A stretch of 64,000 bases of DNA from Acidobacteriota bacterium (lineage in GTDB: Bacteria; Acidobacteriota; UBA890; WLXD01): NCBI GenBank assembly GCA_965205505.1, contig CBDBHB010000008.1, positions 864,001 to 928,000 on the forward strand. The letters are read 5' to 3'. Positions within the stretch are counted from its first letter, which is position 1. The number at the start of each line of letters is the position of its first letter. Positions 5,789 through 21,704 of the stretch are shown piece by piece. A model generated the notes under the pieces. It searched no databases. It saw nothing but the letters and a program-made list of their open reading frames with translations, and was not told the DNA's origin. A program made the translations under genes and the position numbers.

Positions 5789-6688
5789 ATGACGCGCCCC
5801 ACCGATTTACGCATCGACACCACCGCGCTGCTGCGAAATTTGCTCATCTTCTGCGTCAGCATCGAGATGCTGCTCTTCACGTTTGATTACTACTTGAACT
5901 ATGCCGGTGGTAGCCACAGCTCGGCACTCCGACGGCTGTTCAGTACTTCGCGCGAAGACGGTCTCGCCGGATGGGTGGCGGTCCTGCAGACTGCGATGAT
6001 CGCCGTGACGCTGTGGGCAATTTACATGGTGGTCCGCAAGACTGCGACACGCTGGCAGATACTCGGGTGGCAGGCGCTGCTGGTCTTCTTCTGCTATCTG
6101 GCGCTCGACGACGGCGCTCACATTCACGAGCGCCTCGGCACCGCCTACAACGAGGCCGGCGACGGCTTCGCGCTGGGCGCCTGGACGTTGGAGTTGTTTC
6201 CCAGCTACCGCTGGCAGATCGTCTTCATGCCGCTGTTCGCAGCGATGGGGTTCTTCATGTTCGGCTTCCTGCTCAAGCAGCTACGCGGGTGGAAACCGAA
6301 GGCGGCCGTGTTCGTCGCCCTGAGCTGCCTGGCCGGCGCTGTGGTGTTGGACTTCTTCGAAGGGCTGGCGCCGACTCACGCGCTCAACCCCTATACGGCG
6401 ATCACACAGCGCTGGCACCTGGAGTACTGGGCGGCGCGGACATCCGACGTCAGCGCCTATGACATGCTGCTGCACTTCTCCAAGTCGATCGAGGAATGCA
6501 CCGAGATGTTCGGGATGACGCTGCTGTGGGTGGTGTTCCTGCATCACTTCACATGGCTCGCTCGCGACCTGCGCGTGCGGTTCGATCCGCCGCAGCCCCG
6601 ACGAGCGGCAGCGCCGGATCACGGCGTGGCGGCGGTCGCGCAATCCCCCGATCTGATGCCGGCGTCGGAGTTACCCAGAGCGGCCTGA
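5789..6688 (+). CDS. Multi-pass membrane protein of unknown function
   Basis: About 6 hydrophobic helices; LDD..IHE and IEE..EMFG motifs. Confidence 0.75.
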   Translation: MTRPTDLRIDTTALLRNLLIFCVSIEMLLFTFDYYLNYAGGSHSSALRRLFSTSREDGLAGWVAVLQTAMIAVTLWAIYMVVRKTATRWQILGWQALLVFFCYLALDDGAHIHERLGTAYNEAGDGFALGAWTLELFPSYRWQIVFMPLFAAMGFFMFGFLLKQLRGWKPKAAVFVALSCLAGAVVLDFFEGLAPTHALNPYTAITQRWHLEYWAARTSDVSAYDMLLHFSKSIEECTEMFGMTLLWVVFLHHFTWLARDLRVRFDPPQPRRAAAPDHGVAAVAQSPDLMPASELPRAA

Positions 6689-6739: not shown

Positions 6740-8395
6740 CTACGACGCCTTGGGAAGCTCCCCCAACGCCGCTGGTTGGTGCAGGGACCACCAATCCTCC
6801 GCCTCGCTCGGGCCCCATCGGGCGCCGTCAAGCGGCACCTGGGACAGAGCCTCGGACAACTCGCGCATGCTCTCGAATCGGTCGGCTGGGTTCTTTTCGA
6901 GGCACTTGAGAATCGCTGCATCTAGCGACGCGGGAATCAGCAGCTCGGTACGAGTCGAGGGTGCCGCCGGCTGCGTCTTGACGTGATCGACCACCATCGC
7001 CATGGGTGTGGGCTGATCGAACACCAGCTTGCCCGTTACGAGCCAGTACGCGACACACCCGAGGGCGTAGACGTCGGTGGCGGGACCGATCAGCTCGGCC
7101 TGCATCGCCAGCTCGGGCGGCATGTAGGCGGGGGTGCCAGTGGTCAGCCCGTCGACAGTCAGCTGGGTGTCTCCGTGGGCGTCCTGCTGCTTCACCAGGC
7201 CGAAATCGAGGACCTTGACGAAATCGTGCTCGCCGCCCAGGCGACAAGCGTGGATGTTCGCCGGCTTGATATCGCGATGCACCAGGCCGCGGGTATGAGC
7301 CTCGGCCAACGATGCACACGCCTGCCGCAACAGGTAGATGGCGCGCCCCGGCGGCAACGGCCCGAAGCGCTTGACCAAGGTCTCCAGATCGAGACCCTCC
7401 AGATACTCCATTACGTAGTAGAACACCCCTTCGTTGGTAATGCCGAAGTCGTAGATCTCGACGGTGTTGGGAGATCGAAGCCCTGCCGTCGCCCGCGCCT
7501 CGCGCTCGAAGCGGCGGGTCGCCATCTTCGTCGAGTCCTTGTCGCCGTCGCTCAAGAGCTCGGGACGAATGATCTTGATTGCGGCCGGTCGGGCCAGAGT
7601 CTGATGCTGTGCCAACCACACCTCACCCATGCCGCCCTGGCCGATGCGCTCCTGCAGGTCGTAGGTGTTCGCCGAGCGCGCGTCGATGGCCACCGACCGG
7701 AAGCGATCGATGAGTAGCACGCCCAGAATCGATACGATCACGGCGATCGACAGTAGGAACACAACGTCGGTGATCTTGGAGGCAGTCAGCACCGACTGTG
7801 TCAGCAACCGCACTTCCGGATGCCGAGCGCGCACCAGCACTCCGAGCGCGATCGGCGCCGCCCCCAGCGGCACGATGACGGCGGCGGCGCGAGCCCACGT
7901 GTTGGGAACGAAGATCGCGTAGGTCGCCATCAACAACACGAATGAAAGGGCCGTCAGGTTCCATCGCGACAGCACCAGCCCGGCGTCACCAGCAGCGGCC
8001 TCCCGCAACAACTGACCATGATCGAGCACCAGAATGTGCGCGCTCACGGCCACGAACAACACGATCTCTAGCGCGCGCAAGCGGCCTAGCGAAAGATCAC
8101 TCGCGGCAAACAGCAGGATGGTGCCCACGGCGACCAACGCGATGGTGCCGATACGGACCACCCCCACGCCTGCCTGATTGAGGAAAAGATCACGCAACAG
8201 GAACACCGTTGTCCCGCCCAACATGATCGCTGCGAGAGGCCGCAGCAACATGTGCAGGATCACGCGTGTCGCCGGGTCCCCCGACGCGACTGCATCCAGC
8301 AGTCCGGTCTCTGGTCAGAACTTGTGCTTGCAACGATCCGCAGGCGCACGGCCGGCGAGCGAAGGGGCTGTGGGATTCGTGTGCTGTTCAGTCAT
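6740..8395 (-). CDS. Membrane-anchored Hanks-type Ser/Thr protein kinase; extended N-terminus has an in-frame UGA (8315-8317); shorter alternative starts at GTG 8263
   Basis: IGQGGMGEVW, AAIK, HRDIKPAN, DFGL, GTPAYMPPE, DVYALG; N-terminal TM helices; ATG 8395 is in frame with 8263 across one TGA. Confidence 0.9.
8288..8314 (-). promoter_or_regulatory. Candidate bacterial SECIS hairpin after the kinase UGA
   Basis: UGA-CCAGAGACCG-GACUGC-UGGAU-GCAGUC: 10-nt spacer, perfect 6-bp stem, 5-nt loop with G2. Confidence 0.5.
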
Positions 8396-8522
8396 GATCA
8401 ACCTGCCCGATTGGCGTCGGGGTCATTCTCGCACGGACTAGGTATGCCTCTCGGCACCGTATCTTGCCCGTGTAACGACGAGCGGGCATACAACTCGAAG
8501 TTTGCTGCCGACGAGCACGAGG

Positions 8523-9080
8523 TTACTCGGCGCCTGGTGTCACCGCACCAAGGCGTCCGACGATCGAGCCGTCCTCGCCCAACAATCGCAGCTCCGGCGT
8601 TCCGTCGTCCAAGCCCAGTACGATCCGGAGTCGGCCGGCACGATCGAACAGCTCCAGCCGCGGCCCCGCAGACGGAACACTCAGCATCGCTTCGACATCG
8701 CCGGACCGACCCATCAACGCTACCATCGGACCGAATCGATCGCTCACCGTGATCGCGCCACGTGGGCGACCGGCAGCGTCGTGGACGCGTAGTCGTCGAG
8801 CACTCGTGGCGCTCACCTCGGAGGGCACCGGCCGGAGCGCCGGCAACGGTGCAGTAGAGACCGGCGGCTGTACGCGCTGACGCACTTGCCGCTGCAGATC
8901 GTCGATCATCCGCTGCAGGCGACTGGTCTCGTAGTCGAGGCGGAACCGGAGATTGCCGACCTCCTGTCTCAGCTGCATTGTCGCTGCCGATTCCTGCACA
9001 CGGTTGGCAAGCTCTGCGTACAACACTACGAACGGCAACGAGATCAGGCTGAGGGTAAACAAACGGGATACGGTGACCAT
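8523..9080 (-). CDS. Hypothetical membrane-anchored protein (TM, coiled coil, beta-hairpin repeats)
   Basis: ATG 9080; N-terminal TM helix; repeated L.L.D..G..R units. Confidence 0.65.
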   Translation of the reverse strand: MVTVSRLFTLSLISLPFVVLYAELANRVQESAATMQLRQEVGNLRFRLDYETSRLQRMIDDLQRQVRQRVQPPVSTAPLPALRPVPSEVSATSARRLRVHDAAGRPRGAITVSDRFGPMVALMGRSGDVEAMLSVPSAGPRLELFDRAGRLRIVLGLDDGTPELRLLGEDGSIVGRLGAVTPGAE

Positions 9081-9170
9081 CGGCGCGCTCCGTCGAATCG
9101 GGGATGGCGTGTGTCGTTGAGCGTCGTCGGAGTTTAGCCGCCGACGACAATCAAGCTCTGCAAGGCGACT

Positions 9171-9830
9171 ATGATCGACGACACTGTGGACATTGACTTC
9201 GAACGCGCGCGCCGCCAACTTGTCGACACACTACGGAAACAGGGCATCCAGGATCGCCGCGCCCTCGAGGCGATCGCCCGCGTTCCACGCCACGAGTTCG
9301 TACAGTCGCGCTTCGAGCGCGAGGCGTACGGTAACTTCCCACTGCCGCTCGGGCACGGGCAAACCATCTCGCAGCCATACATCGTTGCGCTGATGACGGA
9401 GCTGCTCGACGCTTCACCTGGCGACCGCATCCTCGAGGTCGGTACCGGCAGCGGCTACCAGACGGCAGTGCTAGCGGAGCTCGGGTGCGAAGTCTACACG
9501 GTCGAGATCATCGAAGAGCTCGCCGATCGAGCGGCTGAAGTTCTGTCGCGGCTCGGTTACCGGAGCGTGCACCAGCTCGTCGGCGACGGAGCCCTCGGAT
9601 GGCCGGAGCACGCGCCCTTCGATGGGCTGATTGTCACCGCAGCTCCCTCCGTAGTACCCGAAGCCCTCATCGAGCAGGTCGGCGCCGGCAACCTGGTGGT
9701 GCCGGTGGGCGCGTCAGGGGCCACACAGAAGCTCGTACGGCTCGAGAAAGACCGCTCGGGGCATCTCATTCGACACGACATCGCCCCGGTGCGCTTCGTG
9801 CCGCTGGTCGGCCGGCCGCCGCATGACTAG
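9171..9830 (+). CDS. pcm: Protein-L-isoaspartate O-methyltransferase
   Basis: VPRHEF, GQTISQPYIVA, LEVGTGSGYQTA, GWPEHAPFD, VRFVPL. Confidence 0.95.
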   Translation: MIDDTVDIDFERARRQLVDTLRKQGIQDRRALEAIARVPRHEFVQSRFEREAYGNFPLPLGHGQTISQPYIVALMTELLDASPGDRILEVGTGSGYQTAVLAELGCEVYTVEIIEELADRAAEVLSRLGYRSVHQLVGDGALGWPEHAPFDGLIVTAAPSVVPEALIEQVGAGNLVVPVGASGATQKLVRLEKDRSGHLIRHDIAPVRFVPLVGRPPHD

Positions 9831-18224: not shown

Positions 18225-20567
18225 TTGAGTCGAAGTGTCGCCACCGAGGGCCGGGCAGCGAAGGCGTCCGCTACCGTCGAAGATCGCCAGCTTGCCGGCG
18301 TCGTCATGACCCGCTGCACCGTGCTGATCGGCGCCGCCTATTTGGTGCTCTATGGCAACGGCGAACCGGTGGCGCCGTGGCAACAGATCGCGATGGTGCT
18401 GGTCTTGATGGCCAGCCTCTCTTGCTACGGCATTGCGGTGCGCTCTGGCCGGTGGGAACGCTTGCGCTGGCCGATCACGCTCGCCGATCTTGTCCTCGTG
18501 ACCGTCGCGGTGGCGTTTACTGGTGAAGCGACGAACGACTTCTTCCTGTTCTTCTTCTTGGTGCTGATCATCGCCGGAATCAGCAGCCAGTTCGGCCACA
18601 CCGTGGTCGCCACCATGCTGGTTTGCTCGGTCTACTTCGGCATGATGTATGCCGATCACGGCAGCCTGCTGTTGCGGCAAACTGATCTGCTCATCCGCCT
18701 GCCCTTCCTATTCGGCGTCGGTCTGTTCTTCGGCACGATCTCCGATGAGGCACGTCGTCGGGAGCAACACCGGTACAACCACATCACCGACGTCAACCGC
18801 AAGATGGTGCATCGCTACCATCAGGTGGCGTCGGAGCGAGACCGCACCAGGGCCCTACTGGAAATCGGCCAGCTGGCGCTGTCATCCGGCGATCCGCAAG
18901 GCGTGCTGCGTTCGGTGAACATGAAGCTACGTGAAACGGTGCGCGCCGAGCGGTGTTCGACGCTGATCTTCAATGAGGGAGATCGACACGCCTACCTCGC
19001 CGCCTGTTCCGAGGACGGGGAACAGAGCGTTCAGCTGCTACTGGCTCTGCGGCACTATCCGGAGCTCGAGGAAACACTCTCCACTGGGGAGATCACTGAG
19101 CTGCACGCCAACCAACCCTCGAAGCTCTGGGAGAAAGTGCGCCACCATCTTCCGGCGGCACACCGGTTCCGCAGTTGGTTCGTGGTTCCAGTGATGCACA
19201 GCGAGGTTGTGGTGGGAGCTTTCTTCCTGCGTGATGCCTGTGAGGACTTCACCTTGCAGGAGGAGGAGAGAACTTTCTGCAAGGCCGCCGCCTTGATGGT
19301 GGCCGGCTACTTGCAGGGTTGTGACCTCGTCGAGGAGATGCGACGGCGGACGCGTCTGGACGGACTCACCGGACTTCTCAACTTCTCCACGTTCCGTCAG
19401 GAGCTCGACGAGGCGTTGATCGAGCACGCCAAGAAGGAACACGCGAAACCGCTCTCGCTCGTGATGGTCGATATCGACAACCTCAAGACAATCAACGATC
19501 GTCACGGGCATATGGTCGGCAATCAGGTCATCGGAGAGGTCGGCCAGCGGCTGGCGCGGGCGTTGCCAATGGCCCACTCGATCTGTCGCTATGGCGGCGA
19601 CGAGTTCTTCGCGCTCGTGCCGCTCGACAAGAAGGCCGCCATCGAGCGCGCCGAGCGAGTGTTGATCCTGCTCGAGGAACTGCCTGAAGAGATGCAGTGT
19701 TCCGTACAGGTGTCGATCGGCATCGCGACATTCCCGGAGGACGGCGAGGTGGCCGATAGCTTCATGGACGCAGCAGATCGCGCCATGTACGTCGCCAAGG
19801 GCGAGGGCGGCAATCAGATCCACTCCGCGGGCGTGGGTGACGAGAGCGACGACCGCGTGTACCAGGCAATGATCGCTGTAAACGCGCGGCGGCTGATACC
19901 GGGGGAGGGCAACGCGCTGCGTCAGGTTCTCGACAGCATGCTCCGCAGGGAGGAGCAGGAGCTTGACAGCGCCGCCGTGCAACAATCGCTGCGGGCGCTG
20001 ATGGAAGCGGTGGAGTCCAAGGACAGCTACACGCGCACGCATTCGCTGGAGGTATCCGATCTGACCCGTCGACTCTGCTCGGCGGTCGACCTTACCGAAC
20101 GCGAGGCCCTCGCTGTAGAGGTGGGTGCGCTTGTACACGACATCGGCAAGGTCGGGATCCCCGACGACATCCTGAAGAAGCCCGGGGCTCTAACGACACG
20201 CGAACGCATGCAGATCGAGCAACACCCGGAGATCGGAGCACAGATCCTCAAACCACTTCCAGCGTTGAAGGCCGTCGTCCCCTTGGTGCTACAGCACCAC
20301 GAACGCTGGGATGGTACCGGGTATCCACACGGGCTGGCGGGCACCGATATTCCGGTCGGCTCCCAGATCATCTCGCTCTGCGACGTATGGCACGCGCTGA
20401 CCTCGGACCGCAGCTATCGCCCGGCCTTCTCCCACGAGGTCGCGCGCGACATGATCGCCGATGGCCGCGGCGCCGAGTGGCCCGAGGATCTGGTCGACGC
20501 GTTCTTCGTGATCATCGAAGAGATGCGTGTCGAAAGCAGGCGGAACCGGCGACGCCGTAGCGCCTGA
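18225..20567 (+). CDS. Membrane TM-GAF-GGDEF-HD-GYP c-di-GMP signalling protein
   Basis: N-terminal TM helices; DGLTGL, DIDNLK.IND..GH, RYGGDEF; HDIGK, HHERWDGTGYP. Confidence 0.92.
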   Translation: MSRSVATEGRAAKASATVEDRQLAGVVMTRCTVLIGAAYLVLYGNGEPVAPWQQIAMVLVLMASLSCYGIAVRSGRWERLRWPITLADLVLVTVAVAFTGEATNDFFLFFFLVLIIAGISSQFGHTVVATMLVCSVYFGMMYADHGSLLLRQTDLLIRLPFLFGVGLFFGTISDEARRREQHRYNHITDVNRKMVHRYHQVASERDRTRALLEIGQLALSSGDPQGVLRSVNMKLRETVRAERCSTLIFNEGDRHAYLAACSEDGEQSVQLLLALRHYPELEETLSTGEITELHANQPSKLWEKVRHHLPAAHRFRSWFVVPVMHSEVVVGAFFLRDACEDFTLQEEERTFCKAAALMVAGYLQGCDLVEEMRRRTRLDGLTGLLNFSTFRQELDEALIEHAKKEHAKPLSLVMVDIDNLKTINDRHGHMVGNQVIGEVGQRLARALPMAHSICRYGGDEFFALVPLDKKAAIERAERVLILLEELPEEMQCSVQVSIGIATFPEDGEVADSFMDAADRAMYVAKGEGGNQIHSAGVGDESDDRVYQAMIAVNARRLIPGEGNALRQVLDSMLRREEQELDSAAVQQSLRALMEAVESKDSYTRTHSLEVSDLTRRLCSAVDLTEREALAVEVGALVHDIGKVGIPDDILKKPGALTTRERMQIEQHPEIGAQILKPLPALKAVVPLVLQHHERWDGTGYPHGLAGTDIPVGSQIISLCDVWHALTSDRSYRPAFSHEVARDMIADGRGAEWPEDLVDAFFVIIEEMRVESRRNRRRRSA

Positions 20568-20583
20568 GTCGCGGGCTGCTGCC

Positions 20584-21582
20584 TCAGTCGGCCTTGGCGA
20601 GCAGTGCTGCAATCTCACGTCGCACATCGGCCTCGTCGCCACGCTCGTAGCCATAGTGCCGCCAAACGATGCGTCCGTCTTGATCCAGCAGGTAGTTCGT
20701 CGGCGTTGCGATGACGCCATACGAGCCCGCCGAAATCTCCTGTCCGGGATCGAACGCCGCCGGAATGGAGAAGCCGTTGTCGTCGTAGAACTGCCGCGTC
20801 CGCTCGACATCGTTGGAAACATCGATGGCGATGATCGCCAGTCCCTGAGGCGACAGGTCGCGGTAGATGGCGTCCAGGTGAGGGAACTCCTCACGGCACG
20901 CCAGTCAGGTCGGCGACCAGAAGTTCAGTAGCGTCGCCCCGTGAAGCGCCGAGCGTAACTCAACCTCCGGCTGCTGGAGCCCGGGCAGCGAGAAGTCCGG
21001 CGCGGTCAACGCGACGAGATCGCGCCCTTGCCGGAACCACTCCTCGAAACTCGCCGCGCTTGAAGAATCGATCGAGTACGCCCAGCGCAGCGCCTGGTCG
21101 AGTTGCTCGCTGCGATCAGCAACGCTGGCGCGCAGTAGCATCGTGATGCCACCTGCCAGGTCCCCAGCGCTGGCCATCGCCAGCCCCAACTGCAACGGAA
21201 GGGAGCTCTCGATCGGGATGCCCAGAAGGTCTGTTCGGGTGAGCATCAGCGCCCGTTCGAAGGCACTCGCGGCTTCCTCGTTGTCGCCCACAGCGAGATG
21301 CGCTTCGCCCCTGAGCTCATGGACGCGACTAAACATCCTCGCCTCCGGAAACTCGTCGAGAAAGCCCTCTACCAACTCTAGGCGCTCACGGCCATTCACC
21401 GCGGCAATGCGCTCGAGGCGGCGCAGCGCGACCGCGTTGGTCAGCGGTACCCGACTCGCCGAACCCAGGCGAGTGAAGGCCCTGCCGGCCTCTCCGTCGG
21501 TGTCCAGCGGCCGCATCAGATCCCAGTTCTGACAGGCCGAGACGACGATGGCGGCAAGGGCGAACACAATCAGACGGCGCAC
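20584..21582 (-). CDS. TPR-containing TlpA/ResA-like thioredoxin-fold lipoprotein; candidate selenoprotein (Sec at UGA 20905-20907)
   Basis: Lipobox VSAC; APDFSLP...LLNFWSPT-UGA-LACREEFPHL continues in frame through AIIAIDVS...YGVIATPTNYLLDQDGRIV to a stop at 20584 (332 aa). Confidence 0.88.
20868..20904 (-). promoter_or_regulatory. Bacterial SECIS hairpin of the TlpA-like gene
   Basis: UGA C UGGCGU GCC GUGAGG AGUUC CCUCAC CUGG ACGCCA: two 6-bp stems, apical loop 16 nt from UGA with G at position 2. Confidence 0.75.
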
Positions 21583-21704
21583 TCACGGCCTCCGGTAGGC
21601 TAGTGTCCCGACGCAGGACACCAGCTTCGTATAGGAGGATCCTGTAATGCCGCCGGCCAGGATGCAATGCGGCGACCCCCCAACGGCGCGATGACGAGTG
21701 CAAA

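Follow-up and report, generated by a model that had tools for sequence, protein, structure and literature searches.

A predicted selenocysteine ahead of the membrane domain in a family of Acidobacteriota Ser/Thr kinases

Can a signalling kinase of bacteria be a selenoprotein? Of the bacterial selenoproteins known, the great majority are redox or metal enzymes, with selenocysteine (Sec, U) in the active site. The question is raised by a 64,000-nucleotide stretch of DNA from an Acidobacteriota bacterium (NCBI GenBank assembly GCA_965205505.1, contig CBDBHB010000008.1, positions 864,001 to 928,000), here called the window. On its minus strand, a gene for a membrane-bound Hanks-type Ser/Thr kinase extends upstream to an ATG across a single in-frame TGA, and an earlier note, written from the letters of the window alone, proposed that this TGA encodes Sec. 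Our analysis indicates that 6740-8395 is very probably a genuine selenoprotein gene, in which UGA codon 27 would be decoded as Sec by way of SelB, Sec-tRNA(Sec) and a downstream hairpin. This reading follows from the conservation of the in-frame TGA, its alternation with Cys codons in relatives, a hairpin that accompanies the TGA forms and the presence of Sec machinery in the genome. By these comparisons the gene belongs to what appears to be a real and mis-annotated selenoprotein family, conserved and so far seen only in Acidobacteriota, of six-helix membrane Ser/Thr kinases with an [F/L]-U-P-x-x-G motif. The features of the gene, in window coordinates, are as follows.

6740..8395, minus strand: coding sequence of the predicted selenoprotein kinase, 551 codons plus stop (ATG 8395-8393, stop codon 6742-6740)
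8315..8317, minus strand: in-frame TGA at codon 27, the proposed Sec codon U27
8330..8332, minus strand: Cys22, five residues before U27 (C-x4-U)
8303..8320, minus strand: motif F26-U27-P28-E29-T30-G31, family consensus [F/L]-[U/C]-P-x-x-G
8288..8304, minus strand: hairpin 1, resembling a selenocysteine insertion sequence (SECIS), GACUGC/UGGAU/GCAGUC, -8.6 kcal/mol, 10-nt spacer from the UGA
8270..8286, minus strand: second hairpin, CGUCGGG/GGA/CCCGGCG, -10.0 kcal/mol, loop 35 nt after the UGA
7670..8278, minus strand: membrane domain (residues 40-242), six hydrophobic spans, AlphaFold2 helices mostly above 90 in predicted local distance difference test score (pLDDT)
6869..7663, minus strand: Hanks-type Ser/Thr kinase domain (residues 245-509), Pfam PF00069

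Translated with TGA as U, 6740-8395 is a single open frame whose sole U is residue 27, within the peptide MTEQHTNPTAPSLAGRAPADRCKHKF-U-PETGLLDAVASGDPATRVILHML. The earlier note had placed the ATG at 8395 in frame with the kinase, counted exactly one UGA between them and pointed to a Cys five residues ahead of it; the minus-strand sequence bears out all three, with the UGA (8317-8315) at codon 27 and the Cys at 8332-8330. Open reading frame (ORF) calling with translation table 11 finds a kinase start only at GTG 8263. Logan contigs from four runs in four studies, some perhaps of the source sample, cover 8150-8500 with zero differing letters; this agreement confirms the TGA in sequencing data and excludes a read error at 8315-8317. 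A single contig of run X5 (depth 4.5) has an extra C behind 8160, which shifts the frame in the region coding for the membrane domain and is probably an assembly error.

The codons ahead of the TGA behave as coding sequence. Four orthologues of the same genus have an ATG exactly 26 codons upstream of the TGA, and over these 26 codons the window gene and its orthologue L017 differ at six codons synonymously and at three non-synonymously. The residues A-D-R-C-K-H-K/R-F are preserved through synonymous changes (GAT/GAC, CGT/CGG, TGC/TGT, AAG/AAA), among them a TGC/TGT change at codon 22 that keeps Cys among the orthologues. Other subgroups have a stop and, a few codons later, a first Met that stands 20-50 codons ahead of the TGA. 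Judged from these substitutions, the region before the TGA is translated. Several public gene calls (P0007, P0013, P0110 and P0148 among them) begin immediately after the TGA position, which would follow from gene callers treating a Sec codon as a stop. A further public call, P0008 (465 residues, beginning M-V-R-I-G-T-I-A-L), corresponds by eye to residues from about 79 onward of the window protein; on that alignment it would lack the N-terminal tail together with the Sec motif and the first of the membrane helices.

To define the family, the read-through protein was searched against 61 related genomes, with the loci then read in frame, and the N-terminal 240 residues were searched against 401 genomes of the phylum. 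The first search returned many full-length matches with exactly one TGA inside the match, and the second located the membrane domain in 31 of the 401 genomes, mostly in the window's own order (family f1, 10 of 10; family f2, 11 of 15) and also in f44, f52, f28 and f56. A single-protein search for related loci gave two, both in Acidobacteriota metagenome-assembled genomes (MAGs). With duplicates removed, TGA forms amount to 30 distinct sequences at 31 loci in 25 genomes of four Acidobacteriota families (f1, f2, f44 and f52), and Cys forms (TGC or TGT) to 15 distinct sequences in 13 genomes. About 28 more loci of the wider membrane-kinase family are without the motif and stand outside these counts, some having a CPxCG...CPxC zinc-ribbon-like N-terminus and others no Cys at all. 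None of the conclusions drawn here depends on the unpublished genome G047.

The column shared by TGA and Cys always lies within [F/L]-[U/C]-P-x-x-G, 348-359 residues ahead of the kinase motif HRD-x-KP; one TGA form and two Cys forms have R where the motif has P. The intact genes, aligned in 37 rows with U read as C, have C27(U) and G31 as their sole invariant columns among the first 100 residues. P28 is at least 90% conserved, and the residue before the column is F or L in every U or C form seen. Both states occur among orthologues of the window gene: TGA in G004, G003, G002 (frameshifted further on) and G005, and Cys in G009, G010, G006 and G007. At codon 27, homologues have either TGA with a hairpin or Cys, which is the pattern expected of a Sec site. 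The C-x4-U pair that the earlier note had singled out is kept in the window's orthologue group, and a Cys stands 3-5 residues upstream in about half of the subgroups (CKHKFU, CEHHFU, CLFHLU, CWFU, CRWFU, DCKFU); it is missing in the AALFU, FLQLU and RRFU forms, so a C/U pair cannot be the general mechanism. One TGA form, L048 (G024:C232), reads H-L-U-R-D-S-G, with Arg for the near-invariant Pro; a strong hairpin (-15.0 kcal/mol) is retained.

A tree was inferred by maximum likelihood from the 37 intact genes (26 U and 11 C), with the U/C column and its neighbours dropped and nine broken or truncated genes left out. It places all TGA forms in one clade of 28 (Shimodaira-Hasegawa-like approximate likelihood ratio test, SH-aLRT, 94), which diverges to about 40% identity, and Cys forms at the base. 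Within the clade there is one reversion to Cys (G009/G010), in which the hairpin is lost too, and the tree needs a minimum of two U/C state changes. TGA is retained through several gene duplications.

The hairpin behind the TGA is present as the earlier note had described it: the UGA is followed by a 10-nt spacer (8314-8305) and a perfect stem of GACTGC (8304-8299) and GCAGTC (8293-8288) enclosing the loop TGGAT (8298-8294). The consensus for bacterial SECIS (bSECIS) elements, as given in section 5 of PMC13188914, comprises a stem of 4-16 bp capped by an apical loop of 3-9 nt, a G at loop position 1 or 2, a UGA-to-loop distance of 16-37 nt and an energy of -7.5 kcal/mol or lower. We applied these limits in a scan of our own rather than with bSECISearch, taking perfect stems only. 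The window gene has a hairpin within them (loop UGGAU, 6 bp, spacing 16 nt), as do 27 of the 30 TGA forms. Among Cys forms only 1 of 15 has one, and of all TGA triplets in the window, 120 of 1480 (8.1%) do. The best hairpin has a median energy of -11.6 kcal/mol in TGA forms and -2.4 kcal/mol in Cys forms (Mann-Whitney p 8e-8, an overstated value as kin are not independent).

These hairpins differ in sequence from subgroup to subgroup. The commonest, (N)GCCC-GGUNN-GGGC(N), lies over the codons L-P-G-x-G; the GACUGC/GCAGUC hairpin of the window group, kept in the orthologues L017, L018 and L019, lies over G-L-L-D-A-V; and G005 has a GGUGUCCG/CGGACACC hairpin over V-S-G-S-D-T. Different peptides thus carry different hairpins at the same place, and Cys forms with similar peptides have none. 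For the commonest hairpin, aligned across 19 TGA forms, pairing is found in 86.8% of cells, against 39-53% when the partner is slid. Double-sided changes occur at two pairs (GC to UA/UG and GC to AU), and the covariation score is reached by 0 of 500 shuffles. The second hairpin emerged from the bSECIS-criteria scan and a minimum-free-energy fold; no perfect-stem equivalent at the same spacing is reported in L017, L018 or L019, and its role is therefore doubtful. A scan of the window at Rfam gathering thresholds yielded no family, a result of little weight since Rfam may lack a general bacterial SECIS model.

SelB, Sec-tRNA(Sec) and a downstream hairpin form an established decoding route, and the window genome (5.98 Mb in nine contigs, 96% complete) has the components for it. 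It contains tRNA-Sec (68 bits; ARAGORN call SeC, anticodon tca), SelA (432.4 bits), the SelB-specific wing domain (57.6 bits) and SelD (323 bits), all above curated cut-offs, so that selA, selB, selC and selD, the genes on which the earlier note's proposal depended, are all four present. With homologues, sel genes and reads in agreement and no finding that refutes it, the proposal that this membrane Ser/Thr kinase has a Sec codon near its N-terminus stands as supported.

What kind of protein would carry this residue? The kinase domain matches PF00069 at E 2.3e-38, exceeding the 31.7-bit cut-off with 132.5 bits. In the 37-row alignment K274, H373-R374-D375 and D397-F398-G399 are invariant, and the glycine loop G252-G257 and P427-E428 are invariant or nearly so. 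An AlphaFold2 model built on the alignment (mean pLDDT 83, predicted TM-score 0.67) shows residues 1-22 as disordered, a segment that is also poorly conserved, followed by helices at 40-242 and a kinase fold at 245-540. Strands 24-27 and 31-34 flank the U-P-E-T turn in this model, at pLDDT of about 60-70; with the membrane domain folded alone (pLDDT 86.5), residues 1-38 fall below 55 and are strandless, a weak hint that the Sec motif may be ordered by the kinase domain. Hydropathy predicts six spans, and this even number would put the N-terminus on the same, cytoplasmic, side as the ATP-dependent kinase.

The membrane domain is less easily placed. Residues 1-240 match no Pfam family, and a Foldseek comparison of the membrane domain with the PDB gave no match at E<=1e-3. 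The best, weak structural matches are class III adenylyl cyclases (AC8, PDB 8buz; Rv1625c, PDB 7yzk), with 8buz_A reaching a TM-score of 0.56 on the query and a Foldseek probability of 0.99 at an E value above 1e-3. Like the window protein, these cyclases have a six-helix bundle before a cytoplasmic catalytic domain; unlike it, their output domain is a cyclase rather than a kinase, and they share no similarity in sequence with it. With a membrane-domain profile, 1139 cluster representatives out of 1.84 billion were retrieved at E<=1e-3, and among the best 150 of these, 12 have the Cys motif and most, by eye, a Cys-free V-x-G-S-x-P-x-L-S-x-E-T segment.

On the proposed mechanism, translation would initiate at ATG 8395 and SelB with Sec-tRNA(Sec) would insert Sec at UGA codon 27, with the hairpin 10 nt beyond the UGA as the signal. 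The 551-residue product would comprise a short cytoplasmic tail, the F-U-P-E-T-G motif, six membrane helices and a cytoplasmic Hanks-type kinase, and its selenol would probably lie in the cytoplasm about 13-20 residues ahead of the first membrane helix. With UGA at codon 27, the whole kinase would be synthesized only when selenium is available. For the residue itself we purely infer a sensor role: the selenol could be a reactive group that modulates the kinase through reversible oxidation, a selenenylsulfide or diselenide, or soft-metal binding. We favour a reporter of oxidants or electrophiles over a metal ligand, in which a selenenylsulfide might form with the nearby Cys where there is one and otherwise between chains. 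That Sec is the switch residue of a transmembrane Ser/Thr kinase, linking redox or selenium status to phosphorylation through a selenenylsulfide or diselenide or through a soft metal, is a tentative proposal that we hold at somewhat less than even chance.

Several observations weigh against Sec decoding at codon 27. The hairpin of the window gene is modest in energy, at -8.6 kcal/mol, and sits at the allowed minimum spacing of 16 nt. A fold of 8260-8330 (71 nt) has a z-score of -0.33, with 65 of 200 shuffles folding at least as well, and of the 1481 TGA triplets in the window, 7.6% have a perfect hairpin just as good behind them; taken singly the hairpin is no better than chance, and the signal comes from comparison with relatives. 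In that comparison, the Pro-Gly-x-Gly codons partly dictate the CCC-GGN-NNG-GGC core seen in the commonest hairpin, and three of its eight pairs are invariant. Because the tree has two state changes and kin are not independent, the association of TGA with the hairpin rests on few independent events. Sec machinery occurs in nearly all sampled relatives (SelA over its cut-off in 53 of 61 genomes; tRNA-Sec in 55 of 61, at a cut-off that also admits some tRNA-Ser), so its co-occurrence with TGA is not discriminating. Among the sequencing runs holding the locus, no RNA run is on record.

Do these points favour another account of the TGA? If the UGA were a true stop, it would close a 26-codon leader ORF, and the kinase would be initiated separately at GTG 8263 or ATG 8251. 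Table 11 ORF calling does begin at GTG 8263, public calls of relatives begin downstream of the TGA, and the first 22 residues are poorly conserved and disordered. However, P28 and G31, which lie between the TGA and the downstream starts, are conserved through differing codons in 45 homologues, the F or L before the codon is conserved in TGA and Cys forms alike, 15 homologues have a sense codon for Cys in this column with the frame unbroken, and a conserved hairpin of bSECIS type follows the TGA forms only; a separate start is in our judgement very unlikely. Readthrough by a near-cognate tRNA that inserts Trp, Cys or Arg, with no Sec machinery and no selenium, would draw on the C that directly follows UGA in all TGA forms (the next codon being Pro or Arg), as UGA-C is a weak termination context. 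This C is explained by the conserved Pro, though, and the Cys forms share it. Leaky readthrough also gives no account of a hairpin with a G-rich loop at fixed distance in 27 of 30 TGA forms that is lost in Cys forms, the sole sense residue in the column is Cys, the hallmark of Sec sites, and the genome has the full Sec machinery, which together make such readthrough a highly improbable explanation. A pseudogene or assembly error might be suspected since some relatives do have damaged copies (a frameshift in the G002 orthologue, a second TGA in one G020 copy), but the TGA is identical in the contigs of the four runs and occupies the same column in 26 intact genes with invariant kinase catalytic residues. 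The persistence of TGA down to about 40% identity excludes a pseudogene or error, and this explanation is effectively refuted.

The function of the residue, as distinct from its decoding, has a rival of its own, in which Sec or Cys would be a soft-metal ligand left over from a zinc-ribbon knuckle, perhaps acting across a dimer, and not a redox sensor. Distant paralogues (L036, L037, L105, L109, L113 and P0072) have CPxCG...CPxCL-GLG N-termini at the same place; UPxxG-LLPGLG resembles their second knuckle, from which the Sec/Cys motif may descend; and in the model a short beta strand ends at U27 and gives way to a turn. Table 1 of PMC13188914 also includes several metal-related bacterial selenoproteins. 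Set against this, each chain has one invariant ligand, several subgroups have no second Cys at -3 to -5, conserved neighbours include no metal-handling gene, and descent from a knuckle is a reading of sequences by eye; we consider the metal-ligand role unlikely, though well short of negligible. A redox-sensor role is itself weakened by the disorder of residues 1-22 and a motif pLDDT of only about 60-70, and by the neighbourhood: flanking ORFs are common only within orthologue groups, and among those compared there is no partner gene conserved family-wide.

If UGA 27 is decoded as Sec, how does the kinase compare with known systems? It is like genes decoded through SelB and a bSECIS element, with E. 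coli fdhF as prototype, in its in-frame UGA, a stem-loop inside the ORF directly downstream, Cys homologues and the sel genes of its genome. It differs from them in that the host protein is a signalling kinase rather than an oxidoreductase or metal enzyme, and in that Sec would lie outside the catalytic domains, in an N-terminal segment immediately before the membrane. In the soluble kinase PknG of M. tuberculosis, N-terminal rubredoxin-like CxxCG motifs with four Cys ligands regulate the kinase. The likeness, drawn from this description, is that of a Cys-based motif N-terminal to a Hanks kinase, which would tie the activity of the kinase to redox or metal state, and paralogues in the window protein's family have CPxCG...CPxC N-termini; the window protein's own group instead has one invariant Sec or Cys adjoining a membrane domain. 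The closest solved structure to the kinase domain is M. tuberculosis PknB (PDB 1o6y; E 2.9e-49, residues 236-517). Against NCBIfam NF033483, the PknB/Stk1 PASTA equivalog, the protein scores 243 bits where the cut-off is 450 and is not a member, the kinase domain alone matching. Compared with PknB, the window protein is without a C-terminal extracellular sensor, has an N-terminal six-helix membrane domain ahead of the kinase and would contain Sec.

A kinase-like fold is combined with Sec in SelO, a soluble AMPylase whose Sec is near the C-terminus. The window protein and SelO or SelO-like proteins have this combination in common, but the former has canonical Hanks motifs (K274, HRD, DFG), a six-helix membrane domain and its predicted Sec at residue 27. 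Sec-containing bacterial SelO-like proteins are predicted in deep-Sep (PMC12013277), whose text terms SelO a predicted pseudokinase. A 2026 catalogue lists 119 prokaryotic selenoprotein families (PMC13188914); we found no kinase family in its text, in which the word kinase occurs only twice, each time as PSTK, though its supplementary tables could hold more. The same is true of the main texts of BSepDB and deep-Sep, where kinase as a word again occurs only as PSTK and supplementary tables could likewise hold more. A search of the literature on selenocysteine with Hanks-type or Ser/Thr protein kinases returned nothing relevant, although a groundwater-MAG study cited in PMC13188914 could list the family. 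In the parts of these sources that we could consult, current selenoprotein lists do not seem to include a Sec kinase family.

The decoding is ordinary; the protein that hosts the Sec, and the regulatory position it would occupy there, are not. Were a receptor-type kinase to carry a conserved Sec in its regulatory N-terminal segment, selenium biology would reach into signal transduction. If Sec is indeed the sensing residue, this would be the first signalling-kinase selenoprotein and the first regulatory, non-catalytic Sec in bacteria. Paralogues with Sec, with Cys and with no Cys offer a natural comparison of Sec and Cys in a sensor. For annotation, the consequence is that gene callers cut these genes short, with starts placed beyond the TGA and, in some calls, beyond the first membrane helix.

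Some members of the family are broken. L019/L069 (the G002 orthologue) and L056 (a G007 paralogue) shift frame after the membrane domain, L049 (G020:C57) has a second in-frame TGA, and a Cys-form paralogue in the window genome itself, L096 (G000:C9:1790600-1793300; N-F-C-R-H-F-G), is split from its kinase part; all of these may be pseudogenes or assembly errors. The kinase gene is flanked by an upstream hypothetical protein (8523-9218, minus strand) and a 299-residue membrane protein (5789-6688, plus strand), each of which keeps its place beside the kinase only in the orthologue group (f1). In the window genome, contig C6 has two SelA loci, one on each strand, with equal scores of 432.4 bits (L009 and L010; G000:C6:10616-11695, plus, and G000:C6:191418-192497, minus), which could reflect a large inverted duplication or an assembly artefact.

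The window holds a second gene with an in-frame TGA followed by a hairpin.

20560-21591, minus strand: TPR and AhpC/TSA-redoxin selenoprotein gene, TGA 20905-20907 within W-S-P-T-U-L-A-C (UxxC), PF00578

Its product matches the catalogued Prx-like thiol:disulfide oxidoreductase kind (PF00578, UxxC), and its TGA is followed, after a 10-nt spacer, by the hairpin GUGAGG/AGUUC/CCUCAC. The earlier note had likened the geometry of the kinase hairpin to that behind this UxxC codon at 20905, and the two agree: both have a 10-nt spacer, a 6-bp stem and a 5-nt loop.

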